Positions 9,416 through 20,655 of a stretch of DNA of 64,000 nucleotides are shown piece by piece. Source of the DNA: Escherichia coli (GTDB lineage Bacteria > Pseudomonadota > Gammaproteobacteria > Enterobacterales > Enterobacteriaceae); the NCBI RefSeq assembly GCF_001677475.2, contig NZ_CP015229.1; one strand, written 5' to 3'. A program made the position numbers and the translations under genes. Each line of letters begins with the position of its first letter. Within the stretch, counting starts at the first letter, position 1. The notes beneath the pieces were generated by a model. It saw nothing but the letters and a program-made list of their open reading frames with translations, was not told the DNA's origin and ran no database searches.

Positions 9416-11857
9416 ATGTCACAAGATCCTTTCCAGGAACGCGAAGCTGAAAAATACGCGAATCCCATCCCTAGTCGGGAATTTATCCTCGAACATTTAA
9501 CCAAACGTGAAAAACCGGCCAGCCGTGATGAGCTGGCGGTAGAACTGCACATTGAAGGCGAAGAGCAGCTTGAAGGCCTGCGTCGCCGCCTGCGCGCGAT
9601 GGAGCGCGATGGTCAACTGGTCTTCACTCGTCGTCAGTGCTATGCGCTGCCGGAACGCCTCGACCTGGTGAAAGGTACCGTTATTGGCCACCGTGATGGC
9701 TACGGCTTTCTGCGGGTTGAAGGGCGTAAAGATGATTTGTATCTCTCCAGCGAGCAGATGAAAACCTGCATTCATGGCGATCAGGTGCTGGCGCAGCCGC
9801 TGGGCGCTGACCGTAAAGGTCGTCGTGAAGCGCGTATCGTCCGCGTACTGGTGCCAAAAACCAGCCAGATTGTTGGTCGCTACTTTACCGAAGCGGGCGT
9901 CGGCTTTGTGGTTCCTGACGACAGTCGTTTGAGCTTCGATATCTTAATCCCGCCCGATCAGATCATGGGTGCGCGGATGGGCTTTGTGGTGGTGGTTGAA
10001 CTGACCCAACGCCCGACTCGCCGTACCAAAGCGGTGGGTAAAATCGTCGAAGTGCTGGGCGACAATATGGGCACCGGCATGGCGGTTGATATCGCTCTGC
10101 GTACCCATGAAATTCCGTATATCTGGCCGCAGGCTGTTGAGCAACAGGTTGCCGGGCTGAAAGAAGAAGTGCCGGAAGAAGCAAAAGCGGGCCGTGTCGA
10201 TCTGCGCGATTTACCGCTGGTCACCATTGATGGCGAAGACGCCCGTGACTTTGACGATGCAGTTTACTGCGAGAAAAAACGCGGCGGCGGCTGGCGTTTA
10301 TGGGTCGCGATTGCCGACGTCAGCTACTATGTGCGTCCGCCAACACCGCTGGACAGAGAAGCGCGTAACCGTGGTACGTCGGTGTACTTCCCTTCGCAGG
10401 TTATCCCGATGCTGCCGGAAGTGCTCTCTAACGGTCTGTGTTCGCTCAACCCGCAGGTAGACCGCCTGTGTATGGTGTGCGAGATGACGGTTTCGTCGAA
10501 AGGCCGCCTGACTGGCTACAAATTCTATGAAGCGGTAATGAGCTCTCACGCACGTCTGACCTACACCAAAGTCTGGCATATTCTGCAGGGCGATCAGGAT
10601 CTGCGCGAGCAGTACGCCCCGCTGGTTAAGCATCTCGAAGAGTTGCATAACCTCTATAAAGTGCTGGATAAAGCCCGTGAAGAACGCGGTGGGATCTCAT
10701 TTGAGAGCGAAGAAGCGAAGTTCATTTTCAACGCCGAACGCCGTATTGAACGTATCGAACAGACCCAGCGTAACGACGCACACAAATTAATTGAAGAGTG
10801 CATGATTCTGGCGAATATCTCGGCGGCGCGTTTCGTTGAGAAAGCCAAAGAACCGGCACTGTTCCGTATTCACGATAAGCCGAGCACCGAAGCGATTACC
10901 TCTTTCCGTTCAGTGCTGGCGGAGCTGGGGCTGGAACTGCCGGGCGGTAACAAGCCGGAACCGCGTGACTACGCGGAGCTGCTGGAGTCGGTTGCCGATC
11001 GTCCTGATGCAGAAATGCTGCAAACCATGCTGCTGCGCTCGATGAAACAGGCGATTTACGATCCGGAAAACCGTGGTCACTTCGGTCTGGCATTGCAGTC
11101 CTATGCGCACTTCACTTCGCCGATTCGTCGTTATCCTGACCTGACGCTGCACCGCGCCATTAAGTATCTGCTGGCGAAAGAGCAGGGGCATCAGGGCAAC
11201 ACCACTGAAACCGGCGGCTACCATTATTCGATGGAAGAGATGCTGCAACTGGGTCAGCACTGTTCGATGGCGGAACGTCGTGCCGACGAAGCAACGCGCG
11301 ATGTGGCTGACTGGCTGAAGTGTGACTTTATGCTCGACCAGGTAGGTAACGTCTTTAAAGGCGTAATTTCCAGCGTCACTGGCTTTGGATTCTTTGTCCG
11401 TCTGGACGACTTGTTCATTGATGGTCTGGTCCATGTCTCTTCGCTGGACAATGACTACTATCGCTTTGACCAGGTAGGGCAACGCCTGATGGGTGAATCC
11501 AGCGGCCAGACTTATCGCCTGGGCGATCGCGTGGAAGTTCGCGTCGAAGCGGTTAATATGGACGAGCGCAAAATCGACTTTAGCCTGATCTCCAGCGAAC
11601 GCGCACCGCGCAACGTCGGTAAAACGGCGCGCGAGAAAGCGAAAAAAGGCGATGCAGGCAAAAAAGGCGGCAAGCGTCGTCAGGTCGGTAAAAAGGTAAA
11701 CTTTGAGCCAGACAGTGCCTTCCGCGGCGAGAAAAAACCGAAGCCGAAAGCGGCGAAGAAAGACGCGAGAAAAGCGAAAAAGCCATCGGCTAAAACGCAG
11801 AAAATAGCCGCAGCGACCAAAGCGAAGCGTGCGGCGAAGAAAAAAGTGGCAGAGTGA
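9416..11857 (+). CDS. rnr: ribonuclease R
   Basis: ATG at 9416 gives [17 protein letters not shown], 813 aa; RNB domain, S1 domain, Lys-rich basic C-terminal tail; track ORF starts 14 codons upstream. Confidence 0.93.
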
Positions 11858-17035: not shown

Positions 17036-18661
17036 GTGCACTGGCAAACTCACACCGTTTTTAATCAACCTATACCATTAAATAACAGCAATTTATACCT
17101 GTCTGATGGCGCGCTCTGTGAAGCGGTAACACGTGAAGGTGCTGGCTGGGATAGCGATTTTCTAGCCAGTATTGGTCAGCAGTTAGGAACGGCTGAATCT
17201 CTTGAACTGGGGCGGCTGGCGAATGTGAATCCGCCTGAATTATTGCGCTACGATGCGCAAGGACGCCATCTGGATGATGTGCGTTTTCACCCCGCCTGGC
17301 ACCTGCTGATGCAGGCGCTATGTACCAACCGGGTGCACAATCTTGCCTGGGAAGAAGACGCTCGCTCCGGCGCATTTGTGGCGCGCGCGGCGCGTTTTAT
17401 GTTGCACGCACAGGTTGAGGCAGGGTCGTTATGTCCGATAACGATGACCTTTGCCGCCACGCCATTGCTGTTACAGATGTTACCCGCGCCGTTTCAGGAC
17501 TGGACCACGCCGCTGTTGAGCGATCGCTACGATTCTCACTTATTGCCAGGTGGGCAAAAACGCGGTTTGTTGATTGGCATGGGAATGACGGAAAAGCAGG
17601 GCGGTTCCGATGTCATGAGCAACACCACCCGCGCAGAGCGCCTGGAAGATGGCTCTTATCGGCTGGTGGGGCATAAATGGTTTTTCTCGGTGCCGCAAAG
17701 CGATGCGCATCTGGTGCTGGCGCAGACTACAGGCGGTTTGTCCTGCTTTTTTGTGCCGCGCTTTTTGCCTGACGGGCAACGCAACGCGATTCGCCTCGAG
17801 CGGCTGAAAGATAAGCTGGGGAATCGCTCTAACGCCAGCTGCGAAGTGGAGTTTCAGGATGCCATTGGCTGGTTGTTGGGGCAGGAAGGGGAAGGAATTC
17901 GTCTGATCCTGAAAATGGGTGGGATGACGCGTTTTGATTGCGCCCTGGGTAGCCATGCCATGATGCGCCGTGCATTTTCGCTGGCGATTTATCATGCACA
18001 TCAACGCCATGTTTTTGGTAATCCATTGATCCAACAGCCCCTTATGCGTCATGTCTTAAGTCGCATGGCACTTCAGCTTGAAGGGCAAACGGCGTTGCTG
18101 TTTCGTCTTGCGCGAGCGTGGGACCGGCGTGCCGATGCCAAAGAAGCCCTGTGGGCGCGTTTATTTACGCCTGCGGCGAAATTTGTGATCTGCAAACGAG
18201 GTATGCCGTTTGTGGCCGAAGCGATGGAGGTGCTGGGCGGCATTGGTTATTGCGAGGAGAGCGAGCTGCCGCGGCTTTACCGGGAGATGCCGGTAAACAG
18301 TATTTGGGAAGGTTCCGGTAATATTATGTGCCTGGATGTACTGCGCGTGCTCAATAAGCAAGCGGGTGTATACGACTTATTGTCGGAAGCATTTGTGGAA
18401 GTGAAAGGGCAGGATCGCTATTTTGATCGCGCGGTTCGTCGTTTACAGCAGCAGCTGCGTAAGCCAGCTGAAGAACTGGGGCGAGAGATTACTCATCAGC
18501 TATTCCTGCTGGGCTGCGGTGCGCAAATGTTGAAATATGCCTCTCCGCCAATGGCGCAGGCGTGGTGTCAGGTGATGTTAGATACGCGCGGCGGCGTACG
18601 GTTGTCAGAGCAGATCCAGAATGATTTATTACTGCGGGCGACGGGAGGAGTGTGTGTGTAA
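17036..18661 (+). CDS. aidB: adaptive-response acyl-CoA-dehydrogenase-like protein AidB
   Basis: 541 aa from an apparent GTG start (..HWQTHTVFNQP); acyl-CoA dehydrogenase fold. Confidence 0.9.
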   Translation: MHWQTHTVFNQPIPLNNSNLYLSDGALCEAVTREGAGWDSDFLASIGQQLGTAESLELGRLANVNPPELLRYDAQGRHLDDVRFHPAWHLLMQALCTNRVHNLAWEEDARSGAFVARAARFMLHAQVEAGSLCPITMTFAATPLLLQMLPAPFQDWTTPLLSDRYDSHLLPGGQKRGLLIGMGMTEKQGGSDVMSNTTRAERLEDGSYRLVGHKWFFSVPQSDAHLVLAQTTGGLSCFFVPRFLPDGQRNAIRLERLKDKLGNRSNASCEVEFQDAIGWLLGQEGEGIRLILKMGGMTRFDCALGSHAMMRRAFSLAIYHAHQRHVFGNPLIQQPLMRHVLSRMALQLEGQTALLFRLARAWDRRADAKEALWARLFTPAAKFVICKRGMPFVAEAMEVLGGIGYCEESELPRLYREMPVNSIWEGSGNIMCLDVLRVLNKQAGVYDLLSEAFVEVKGQDRYFDRAVRRLQQQLRKPAEELGREITHQLFLLGCGAQMLKYASPPMAQAWCQVMLDTRGGVRLSEQIQNDLLLRATGGVCV

Positions 18662-18720
18662 GCGTATACGACTGATGCGACGCTGGTTTCGATTAACTCA
18701 ATGAAATATGTGAAAATTGT

Positions 18721-18752
18721 AGGCCGGATAAGGCGCTTGCGCCGCATCCGGC
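18721..18752. repeat. REP element
   Basis: GGCCGGATAAGGCGCTTGCGCCGCATCCGGC. Confidence 0.55.
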
Positions 18753-18777
18753 ATTGTTCATTTGCTGTAGATGACAC

Positions 18778-19053
18778 TCACGCATACAGTATCGCCTGCA
18801 CGCGCCAGTTATCAGGCTGCTGGTCTTCGTACATGGTAATAATGCGGTACCATGACGCACCTTGTTCTTCGGCCTTTAACGCCACGATACGTTCCACGTC
18901 CTGCGGATCCCCTGAAATATTGCTAACTGAGATCTGACCTATTTCATTCAGGCCCGTCACGCAGTCAGCACTGGCGAATTCTGCAGACTGTGCCGTGGCG
19001 CTCGCAGGATAAGTCACTAATTGCAGCGAGGGTGAGGCAAGTAATTGTTTCAT
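18778..19053 (-). CDS. yjfN: YjfN (DUF1471/YdgH-BhsA-McbA-like small periplasmic protein)
   Basis: 91 aa from MKQLLASPSLQLVT with signal peptide; track ORF is N-extended. Confidence 0.75.
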   Translation of the reverse strand: MKQLLASPSLQLVTYPASATAQSAEFASADCVTGLNEIGQISVSNISGDPQDVERIVALKAEEQGASWYRIITMYEDQQPDNWRVQAILYA

Positions 19054-19212
19054 CGTCAGCTCCATTTTTCGTTTCCCCACATGTTGCAGGGCATTCCATC
19101 GCGGTAATAAACGCCCGAGCTTCCAGCCGGTAATTTATTGTGCACAGGTAAACGCATAGGGACGCAAAGCAATGTAAAGCTGACTATGTAAGTTGTCTGA
19201 TTTATTTACGGT

Positions 19213-19400
19213 ATATACTCGTCATACTTCAAGTTGCATGTGCTGCGCCTGCGTTCACTCACCCCAGTCACTTACTTATGTAAGCTCCTGGGGATTCACT
19301 CGCTTGTCGCGTTACTCGGCCTGAGGCCTCGCCCTTTCAGGGCCAACGCAAGCGTTGTTCAAAACGCCCCTGCCGTTTTGTCCTGCAACTCGAATTATTT
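19213..19400. repeat. ERIC/IRU element (enlarged variant)
   Basis: Contains both ERIC primer-site motifs: ATGTAAGCTCCTGGGGATTCAC and reverse complement of AAGTAAGTGACTGGGGTGAG, flanked by GCAACTTGAAGTATGACGAGTATA-like ends. Confidence 0.6.
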
Positions 19401-19724
19401 AGAGTATAAAATGGCTTGTGAATACCACTGTCCTGTCACGATGGTTTCGTCCACCATGACGACAACGTAATAATCAGCTTTTGCAGCGACAGCTTTCGCT
19501 CTGATTTCTGCTAATGCGTCATCCGGAGAACCCCGAACCATCGTGCTTACGCTACCTATTCGCTGTAACCCTTGCGTCTGGTCGCGGCGAATCTCTTGCG
19601 GATGGTCCGTTACTGGCGGTGCTGGCTGTGGCGTACCTTGCAGTGCGCTACAGGCACTTAACATCAACACCAATAATAAACTGGCAAACCGGTAAATAAC
19701 GCTATTACGTTTCCTGCTAACCAT
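19395..19724 (-). CDS. bsmA: biofilm stress and motility lipoprotein BsmA (YjfO)
   Basis: 109 aa from MVSRKRNSVIYRFASLLLVLMLSAC (lipobox LSAC). Confidence 0.75.
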   Translation of the reverse strand: MVSRKRNSVIYRFASLLLVLMLSACSALQGTPQPAPPVTDHPQEIRRDQTQGLQRIGSVSTMVRGSPDDALAEIRAKAVAAKADYYVVVMVDETIVTGQWYSQAILYSK

Positions 19725-19905
19725 AGTGTAGTGCCTTATTAATTTAACTTTGGGGGAATGTTCCCGAATTGTTACCTGGTACGCGATTTTCGAATGAAAA
19801 CGTGACGAAAGCGTAACCCACATCTCAACATTATGAACTAATACCGCCAGCAGAAACTTGTGCTAAGGATTTCTTCATGTCATACCAGACAAAAAGGAGA
19901 GACAG

Positions 19906-20655
19906 ATGATTGAAATAGAATCACGCGAGCTGGCAGATATTCCCGTTCTTCACGCTTATCCCACAGGGCAAAAAGAAACACCGTTACCATGCGTGATTTT
20001 TTATCACGGCTTTACTTCATCCAGCCTGGTGTATAGCTATTTTGCCGTCGCGTTGGCACAGGCTGGTTTGCGGGTGATTATGCCGGATGCGCCCGATCAC
20101 GGTAGCCGTTTTAGTGGCGACGCACCGCGACGGTTAAATCAATTCTGGCAAATCTTGCTACAAAGTATGCAGGAATTCACTACCTTACGTGCGGCAATAG
20201 CCGAAGAAAACTGGCTGCTTGATGACCGTCTGGCAGTCGGTGGCGCGTCGATGGGCGCGATGACGGCACTGGGGATTATCGCTCGCCACCCCACGGTGAA
20301 ATGTACCGCCAGTATGATGGGATCGGGCTATTTTACATCGCTCGCCCATTCACTGTTTCCACCGCTGATACCTGAAACGGCAGCACAGCAGAATGAATTC
20401 AATAACATTATCGCGCCGCTGGCAGAGTGGGAAGCGACAAACCACCTGGAACAACTTGGTGACAGACCTCTACTGCTGTGGCATGGCCTCGACGATGACG
20501 TTGTGCCTGCCGATGAATCACTACGTTTGCAGCAGGCCTTAAGCGAGACGGGACGGGATAAACTGCTAACCTGTTCATGGCAACCAGGCGTGCGTCACCG
20601 CATTACGCCTGAGGCGTTAGATGCTGCCGTGACATTTTTCCGCCAGCATCTTTAA
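19906..20655 (+). CDS. yjfP: alpha/beta-hydrolase esterase YjfP
   Basis: 249-aa ORF with GxSxG-type nucleophile elbow (GGASMG). Confidence 0.85.

Follow-up and report, generated by a model that had tools for sequence, protein, structure and literature searches.

Two genes with YdgH/BhsA/McbA-like products (PF07338), bsmA and yjfN, lie on the minus strand of the window, by which we mean the whole 64-kb stretch of DNA that was analysed. An enlarged ERIC element was found between them, overlapping the 3' end of bsmA; the initial annotation had placed it there and the gene coordinates agree. The minus strand is the conventional ERIC orientation and also the sense of the bsmA mRNA. The features of the locus are listed below in window coordinates.

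18778–19053, minus strand: yjfN coding sequence, downstream of the element and on the same strand as bsmA (name from RefSeq orthologues).
19202–19213, minus strand: fossil of the original bsmA end, TAC CGT AAA TAA, Tyr-Arg-Lys-stop (from alignments of filled and empty sites).
19214–19408, minus strand: whole ERIC/IRU including both TA, 195 bp (junctions set by empty-site alignments).
19216–19406: element proper without the flanking TA.
19214–19215, no strand: left TA, presumed copy of the target-site duplication (filled versus empty alignments).
19407–19408, no strand: right TA, the other presumed copy and the last two bases of the bsmA Leu codon TTA (filled versus empty alignments).
19214–19238: left terminal inverted repeat, TATACTCGTCATACTTCAAGTTGCA; in bsmA-sense RNA it forms the 3' side of the basal helix.
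19384–19408: right terminal inverted repeat, TGCAACTCGAATTATTTAGAGTATA; in bsmA-sense RNA it forms the 5' side of the basal helix and includes the bsmA stop codon.
19258–19299, minus strand: central ERIC core, 42 of 42 positions matched.
19311–19380, minus strand: 70-nt insert of four hairpins, here called C-type (from canonical versus interrupted copies, covariation and two covariance models, R1 at 97.3 bits and RF02902 at 33.0 bits).
19395–19406, minus strand: ERIC-encoded bsmA end, TAC TCT AAA TAA, Tyr-Ser-Lys-stop (from sequence, alignments and translation).
19395–19724, minus strand: coding sequence of the biofilm gene bsmA, 109 aa (name from RefSeq orthologues).

The 42-nt core GTGAATCCCCAGGAGCTTACATAAGTAAGTGACTGGGGTGAG, a search pattern that we take to represent the ERIC1R/ERIC2 primer sites, was present on the minus strand with 0 mismatches, while 0 occurrences were expected in shuffled sequences. 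It occurs as a single copy within the window. The two terminal inverted repeats are 25 nt each and 80% complementary. After removal of the 72-nt internal stretch 19311–19382, the remaining 123 nt were compared with canonical 127-bp E. coli ERICs and gave a best match of 95.3% identity (E 6e-49). This de-inserted element had matches in essentially every E. coli genome, at a median of 10 places per genome. The window ERIC could be aligned end to end with the independent copies at ybhI-ybhJ, preT-yeiS and prfH (alignment A2), which answers the call of the initial annotation for an alignment to the ERIC consensus. Because of the exact core, the identity over the whole element and the end-to-end alignment, we concluded that 19214–19408 is a genuine ERIC/IRU miniature inverted-repeat element. 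A chance resemblance, which had been named in advance as the outcome that would overturn the annotation, has no point in its favour against an exact 42-nt core and about 95% whole-element identity, and is excluded.

The core motifs reported in the initial annotation were thus present, and the element is indeed longer than the consensus of about 127 bp. The enlargement consists of the 70 nt at 19311–19380, which stand in place of the 'CT' in the canonical GTCGC-CT-TCCTGCAAC of the right arm, and the length is accounted for as 127 - 2 + 70 = 195 bp. The span first assigned, 19213–19400, does contain the ERIC, but its right boundary had to be moved 8 nt further right, to 19408.

ERICs, also known as IRU or RU-1, were described in Enterobacteriaceae by Sharples & Lloyd (1990) and Hulton et al. 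(1991), and have been reviewed in PMC2229807 and PMC3184786. The window copy resembles other ERICs in its core, terminal inverted repeats, TA termini, long-hairpin fold, multi-copy dispersal and transcribed gene-side location. It differs from a typical copy in its length (195 versus 127 bp), in its presence at a site left vacant by K-12 and nearly every E. coli, and in a coding overlap of 12 nt. By this overlap with the bsmA end it also departs from the strictly intergenic location by which ERICs are recognised. Its position does not exclude membership, because intragenic exceptions have been documented, namely RU-1 (ERIC) sequences fused to coding sequence at the 3' ends of genes (Delihas 2007, PMC2759123). 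The ERIC of the window is in our view an ordinary element of the known interrupted type, and its enlargement is a known variant. Interruptions of about 70 nt in ERICs are said to have been reported by Sharp and Leach in 1996, by Cromie, Collins and Leach in 1997 and by Sharp in 1997, and the 1997 reports reportedly describe interruptions that keep the RNA folding. Compared with ERICs carrying such internal insertions, the window copy likewise has, at a fixed place inside the element, a self-folding insert of some 70 nt, and nothing essential differs.

The target site was reconstructed from alignments of filled and empty alleles. Read in bsmA sense, the empty allele of K-12 is GCC ATT TTG TAC CGT AAA TAA ATCAGAC, and the filled allele is GCC ATT T-TA-[ TAC TCT AAA TAA TTCGAG ... 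GACGAGTA ]-TA-TAC CGT AAA TAA ATCAGAC. The junctions can accordingly be written GCCATTT-TA-[ TACTCTAAATAA...GACGAGTA ]-TA-TACCGTAAATAA. The alignments fit an arrangement X-TA-[element]-TA-Y, which we counted as a duplication of TA. At 16 of the 18 other distinct ERIC loci examined TA was also found at both ends. A TA target duplication has been reported for ERICs in a passage of PMC2759123 that cites De Gregorio and Wilson & Sharp. From the sequences, the junctions at bsmA fit such a duplication provided that TTA was the Leu codon before the insertion. None of 5,420 empty sites of E. coli showed the TTA TAC that this requires; all of them read TTG TAC, and TTA at this Leu codon was seen only next to TAT, namely in E. 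albertii and part of the Citrobacter and Salmonella loci. The ERIC would have inserted at a TA where the Leu codon of bsmA meets the Tyr codon, four codons before the gene end, presumably in an ancestor of some non-coli Escherichia lineages.

The consequence of this position is that the last codons of bsmA lie inside the element: the stop codon at 19395–19397, Lys at 19398–19400, Ser at 19401–19403 and Tyr at 19404–19406. The coding overlap comprises 12 nt of element sequence, enough for three sense codons and the stop, and in addition the TA that belongs to the Leu codon. The initial annotation had stated that the right end of the element reaches the bsmA stop codon. The overlap as such stands, but its extent was underestimated, as the element itself supplies Tyr-Ser-Lys-stop and ends only at 19408. 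Through the insertion the fossil of the original gene end came to lie 193 bp further downstream. This old end, TACCGTAAATAA, and the ERIC end TACTCTAAATAA are identical at 10 of 12 positions, and the C-terminus of BsmA reads ...QAILYSK and not ...QAILYRK, the sole change being Arg108 to Ser with the length kept at 109 aa. In the intragenic fusions of Delihas (2007, PMC2759123) an ERIC likewise gives C-terminal codons and the stop to a conserved gene; there the protein is extended by tens of ERIC residues, whereas at bsmA the replacement is length-neutral and one residue is changed.

We then compared the occupancy of this site among genomes. The genome of the window is itself outside the collection of complete E. 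coli genomes that was searched (5,426). In this collection the site was filled in two genomes, D8 and SW07096, and empty, with the ...YRK* end intact, in the other 5,424 including K-12, in which the locus is 193 bp shorter. The source of D8 was Panamanian river water, that of SW07096 wastewater in the Galapagos. The comparison with other strains that had been suggested as a check therefore revealed a polymorphic site, and bsmA is not a standard ERIC locus of E. coli. Among bsmA loci taken from 80 GTDB species representatives, the site was filled in L010 (labelled E. coli SCPM-O-B-8794), L011 (E. whittamii) and L012 (Escherichia sp. E1V33). Filled sites were found only in the window, D8, SW07096 and these three representatives, which we count as non-coli Escherichia, and all of the filled sites end in ...YSK*. 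The site was empty and the gene ended in ...YRK* in Citrobacter, Enterobacter, Klebsiella and Kluyvera, among others, as well as in Escherichia sp. MOD1-EC7003, and in Salmonella the site is empty and the end is ...YRQ*. E. albertii is empty in its DNA (TAT CGT AAA TAA), yet has premature stops in bsmA. As the outgroups are empty and a fossil gene end stands beside the element, the insertion is the derived state.

The relationship of the window to these genomes was followed by sequence identity. Over 15 kb its best identity in the complete E. coli collection was 97.9%, to ST2747 strains, and over 2.7 kb it was 92-93.5% identical to L010-L012. We concluded from these values that the window originates from a divergent Escherichia lineage. 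In the flanks of the element the window differs from K-12 at 4 of 278 positions and from E. whittamii at 7 of 273, and the ERICs of the window and of E. whittamii differ at 1 of 192 positions. The flanks of D8 showed no difference from Escherichia sp. E1V33 in 273 positions and 10 differences from K-12 in 281. Given this pattern in D8, either recombination has transferred the filled allele or D8 itself is atypical. For the filled allele of the window, both vertical descent and import by a short recombination tract are possible from the sequences.

Insertions into coding sequence normally vanish. The insertion at bsmA probably persisted because the end of the ERIC re-creates the end of the gene, and this near-silent re-creation is the most likely explanation for its survival inside a coding sequence. 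It is the stop-rich end of ERIC that makes a near-silent landing in the last codons of a gene possible. A general preference of ERIC for targets resembling its own end was considered as an alternative origin of the match at 10 of 12 positions and was rejected: averaged over 18 distinct loci, 3.7 of 12 positions matched, the same as in the permuted control. The match at bsmA is better read as the survivorship of an insertion that was nearly silent. The match could instead reflect microhomology-assisted integration. An independent parallel was found at a metagenome locus (L138), where the ERIC end gives Leu-Tyr-Pro-Lys-stop (TTA TAC CCT AAA TAA) to an ORF of 365 codons, with frame and offset identical to those at bsmA. 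Long ORFs ending within 30 nt of the 'TAAATAA' end of an ERIC were found at 9 of 26 loci, versus 3 of 23 at the other end, a difference that is not significant in this small sample.

The RNA of the element, folded with a few flanking bases in bsmA sense, had a minimum free energy of -85 kcal/mol, compared with -57.2 +/- 4.2 for shuffled sequences (z -6.66). For the opposite strand -70.2 kcal/mol was obtained (z -3.99). The stable stem-loop that had been predicted for the ERIC transcript is therefore strong on both strands. In the minimum-free-energy structure the terminal repeats pair as a basal helix, and the last four codons of bsmA and the UAA lie in its 5' strand. A search for intrinsic terminators (GC-rich stem followed by a T-run) found none on the bsmA strand between 18650 and 19950. 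With no such terminator between bsmA and yjfN, co-transcription through the element is plausible, and by its position the element is plausibly transcribed as the bsmA 3' UTR or as bsmA-yjfN intercistronic RNA.

The influence on mRNA stability named in the initial annotation goes back to experiments in Yersinia and applies to bsmA by analogy. In the model of De Gregorio et al. (2005), as reviews describe it, ribosomes that block the formation of the hairpin lay open a site for RNase E in the 3' terminal repeat, and degradation of the upstream transcript follows; the effect on the upstream transcript depends on the orientation of the ERIC. As in the stop-overlapping ERICs of Yersinia, the bsmA element is co-oriented with the upstream gene, its TAAATAA end meets that gene, the stop codon (19395–19397) is located in the terminal repeat helix and the downstream gene is on the same strand, co-transcription being suggested by position. 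The two cases differ in the genus, and the bsmA case is known from its sequence, with a putative RNase E site. The configuration fits the Yersinia model, because a ribosome terminating at 19395–19397 would cover practically all of the 5' side of the basal helix. If the element acts on bsmA at all, its most likely effect is of this kind: ribosomes that terminate within the 5' terminal repeat would hold the basal helix open, which would expose the AU-rich 3' terminal repeat to RNase E and would lower the bsmA mRNA relative to the empty allele. By analogy, an RNase E effect of this kind on bsmA mRNA is possible, but we consider it rather doubtful.

The C-type insert was found at the identical ERIC position in the copies at iscX-pepB, ybhM, rfaJ-waaO (partly deleted) and upstream of uhpA, and a similar insert is present in 1,467 of the 5,426 complete E. 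coli genomes. In PT62 and RM9088 the ERIC at ybhM contains three inserts and measures 344 bp. A scan of metagenomes, for which the insert/terminal-repeat junction served as anchor, yielded 61 loci. From 25 distinct full-length inserts we prepared an alignment (A3), which was anchored on the ERIC flanks, so that the sampled sequences are related. The aligned inserts form four consecutive hairpins with 22 pairs, and 96.6% of the cells are paired. Among these 25 homologues 10 of the 22 pairs were altered on both sides. The covariation was 0.213, compared with 0.011-0.052 when the pairing partners were slid, and the observed value was reached in 0 of 500 shuffles. RNAalifold independently recovered four identical hairpins. 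Among the G-U pairs 13 favoured the bsmA-sense strand and 5 the other, weak evidence in that 7 of these came from a single pair.

A covariance model built from C-type inserts (R1) scored 97.3 bits on the window copy and approx. 54 bits on a second insert, the A-type, located in the other arm of the ERIC. By this match the A-type and the C-type belong to one family. Both have one orientation relative to the whole ERIC, despite their position in opposite arms of the palindrome. The A-type is present in ybhM and in the orthologous bsmA copies of D8, SW07096, L010 and L012, which accordingly carry two inserts (A- and C-type), and is absent from the window, with its single C-type insert, and from E. 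whittamii; in the latter two the corresponding arm has the canonical uninterrupted sequence. Its presence and absence at an orthologous ERIC therefore indicate that the module comes or goes as a unit. Two further candidates were rejected. The central B-type insert of the ybhM ERIC is not a member of the family, as R1 gave no match at E <= 1. A tRNA-like origin, considered because of the GTTCAAATCC motif in the A-type, was not supported by ARAGORN, which found nothing in 19100–19500.

A relationship of the insert to the Rfam family RF02902 was also detected. RF02902 (AaHKsRNA22, Aggregatibacter sRNA 22) has been described as a stand-alone sRNA of a Pasteurellaceae species, and PMC5909427, probably its source study, makes no mention of repeats or ERIC. 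On the bsmA-sense strand of the window insert the RF02902 model scored 33.0 bits (E 0.001), which is below the gathering score of 39.8; the insert at iscX-pepB reached 45.3 bits and is above it. The insert resembles RF02902 in its succession of short hairpins, whose order and strand agree, and the E. coli homologue at iscX-pepB passes the gathering score. It differs in the sub-threshold score of the window copy and in that the Rfam family is not described as part of an ERIC. One copy of the module, at 2843–2933 of locus L140, scored 65.8 bits and had no recognisable ERIC around it.

Taken together, the locus very probably represents an ERIC with one 70-nt module that inserted at a TA in the end of bsmA and is most likely a near-neutral passenger. 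The passenger is the default reading for the function of the element, and a rival to it is that the ERIC is kept as an adaptive post-transcriptional regulator of bsmA, possibly also of yjfN, for mRNA stability or for the bsmA/yjfN stoichiometry. Such a role would agree with the stop codon within the basal helix, the configuration studied in Yersinia, with insert hairpins held by compensatory changes across the family, and with the retention of the element in at least four diverged Escherichia lineages, where 1-8 differences in about 192 nt of element compare with 5-7 in 273 nt of flank. However, these element values are not clearly better than those of flanks that are themselves very conserved, and the element is missing in nearly all E. 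coli and in every outgroup, while bsmA shows no sign of depending on it. We therefore regard a selected regulator as unlikely. An intrinsic transcription terminator between bsmA and yjfN would be another function for a very stable hairpin directly after a coding sequence, but the bsmA strand has no terminator-like site in 18650–19950 and the basal helix is followed by ACCGUAAAUAAAUC and not by a U-tract, which makes a terminator highly improbable. With regard to the history of the site, the ERIC could be ancestral to E. coli and its sister clades and have been lost in E. coli by precise excision or by conversion to the empty allele. The filled allele does occur in lineages about 7% diverged from the window (L010-L012) and also in an E. 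coli-like background, the window flanks being closest to K-12. Against this, E. albertii, Escherichia sp. MOD1-EC7003, Citrobacter, Salmonella, Enterobacter and Klebsiella are all empty, the empty alleles retain the conserved gene-end sequence at the site, the fossil TAC CGT AAA TAA beside the element shows that the empty state came first, and the flanks of D8 point to recombinational transfer. An ancestral ERIC is thus very unlikely, somewhat less so than a terminator.

The nature of the insert can be read in a further way, as more than a length variant, namely a separate mobile or functional structured-RNA module of the RF02902 family, specific in site and orientation and nested in the ERIC. 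One family at two ERIC sites in a single orientation, the variable presence of the A-type at the orthologous bsmA ERIC, four hairpins kept by compensatory change, the iscX-pepB copy above the RF02902 gathering score and the L140 copy outside a recognisable ERIC all speak for it. On the other side, neither machinery for transposition nor a target duplication nor an autonomous copy was identified, the junctions are not entirely neat, as 1-2 nt are replaced, the G-U strand asymmetry is weak, and the alignment was anchored on ERIC flanks, so that related sequences were sampled. Moreover, interruptions of ERIC that keep the fold were reportedly known already in 1997. We hold the nested module as a tentative possibility, with the weight of probability against it. 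If it were true, the enlargement of ERICs would be a nested-element phenomenon common to Enterobacterales and Pasteurellaceae, and within the window the 70-nt module would belong functionally to the bsmA 3' UTR.

For annotation, the bsmA end is ERIC-derived in the lineage of the window (Arg108Ser, same length), the spacer between bsmA and yjfN exceeds that of K-12 by 193 bp, and a fossil stop lies downstream of the element. Knowledge of ERIC as a kind of element is left unchanged by this case, which concerns an ordinary element in a rare and tidy position. The link between the insert and RF02902, together with the covariation, is a small new lead on the nature of ERIC interruptions. The filled and empty alleles of bsmA form a clean pair, in which ERIC appears to have been mobile within Escherichia and to have duplicated TA on insertion. 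With its stop-rich end an ERIC can settle among the final codons of a gene and leave the protein almost unaltered, and the metagenome contig provides a second, independent example. Outside Yersinia, the ERIC at bsmA offers a natural setting in which to test the model of RNase E action coupled to translation.

Internal inserts were not limited to one per ERIC copy, as seen in two E. coli genomes, PT62 and RM9088, in which one ERIC contained three different internal inserts:

L004 600-970, and L005: 344-bp ERIC with three different internal inserts, between a DUF3969 gene and ybhM (PT62, RM9088)

In this element the A-type insert was located in the left arm, the distinct B-type insert beside the core and the C-type insert (the type of the bsmA ERIC) in the right arm, and all three shared the common end TTT(G/A)TC. 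Shortened elements were detected as well. A 76-bp 'mini-ERIC' at approx. 10075-10150 of comparison locus L121 consisted of only the two terminal repeats and one insert hairpin, and looks like the product of a palindrome-mediated internal deletion; comparable central deletions were found in the E. coli ERICs between rfaJ and waaO and upstream of uhpA. A copy of the four-hairpin module was also present at L140 2843-2933 (the same locus as L153 4235-4325), scoring 65.8 bits with R1, the covariance model built from C-type inserts, and 32.5 bits with RF02902. It was surrounded by GC-rich, REP-containing DNA, in which neither the terminal repeats nor the core of an ERIC could be recognised.

ERICs were also found at the ends of other genes. 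In a metagenome contig (L138, minus strand, at approx. 7911 of the reverse complement) the Leu-Tyr-Pro-Lys-stop of a 365-codon ORF was derived from the ERIC end, in a frame and with an offset identical to those at bsmA. In E. coli, between ybhI and ybhJ (L091 236-260), a canonical 127-bp ERIC began right after the ybhI stop codon (…GCTGTAA/ATATTCTCG, the slash marking the boundary), but here the gene was faced by the opposite ERIC end to that at bsmA. In E. albertii NBRC 107761 the bsmA frame was cut short by a premature stop that follows codon 42, with another TAG near the 3' end, and this representative therefore appears to carry bsmA as a pseudogene.

At the bsmA ERIC itself two features were recorded:

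19394-19422, minus strand: sigma-70-like site, TTCACA-17-AATAAT, 10 of 12 matches, straddling the bsmA/ERIC junction
19234-19470, plus strand: 78-aa ORF through the ERIC, antisense to bsmA, including ...NSNYLEY

The -10 hexamer of the sigma-70-like site was ERIC sequence, whereas the empty site of K-12 had AATAAA instead. Such a site would be directed into the ERIC, towards yjfN; the count of such sites in the region was not above chance expectation. The ...NSNYLEY stretch corresponds to the 'RU-1' reading frame described by Delihas (2007, PMC2759123). The 78-aa ORF is probably not a gene.

Just downstream of aidB we observed a REP-like palindrome, GGCCGGATAAGGCGCTTGCGCCGCATCCGGC, at 18722-18759 (also 18722-18796, minus strand), whose partial match to Rfam naRNA4 scored 37.1 bits, short of that family's gathering score (59.5). 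The same palindrome was carried by D8, an E. coli strain with a filled bsmA site.

The ERIC sits immediately upstream of a conserved block in the spacer that precedes yjfN (approx. 19090-19190). This block, AGTCAGCTTTACATTGCTTTGCG(T/C)CCCTATGCGTTTACCTGTGC, was near-invariant across Escherichia, Citrobacter and Salmonella, and such conservation of sequence suggests that the spacer contains a conserved promoter or leader element of yjfN.
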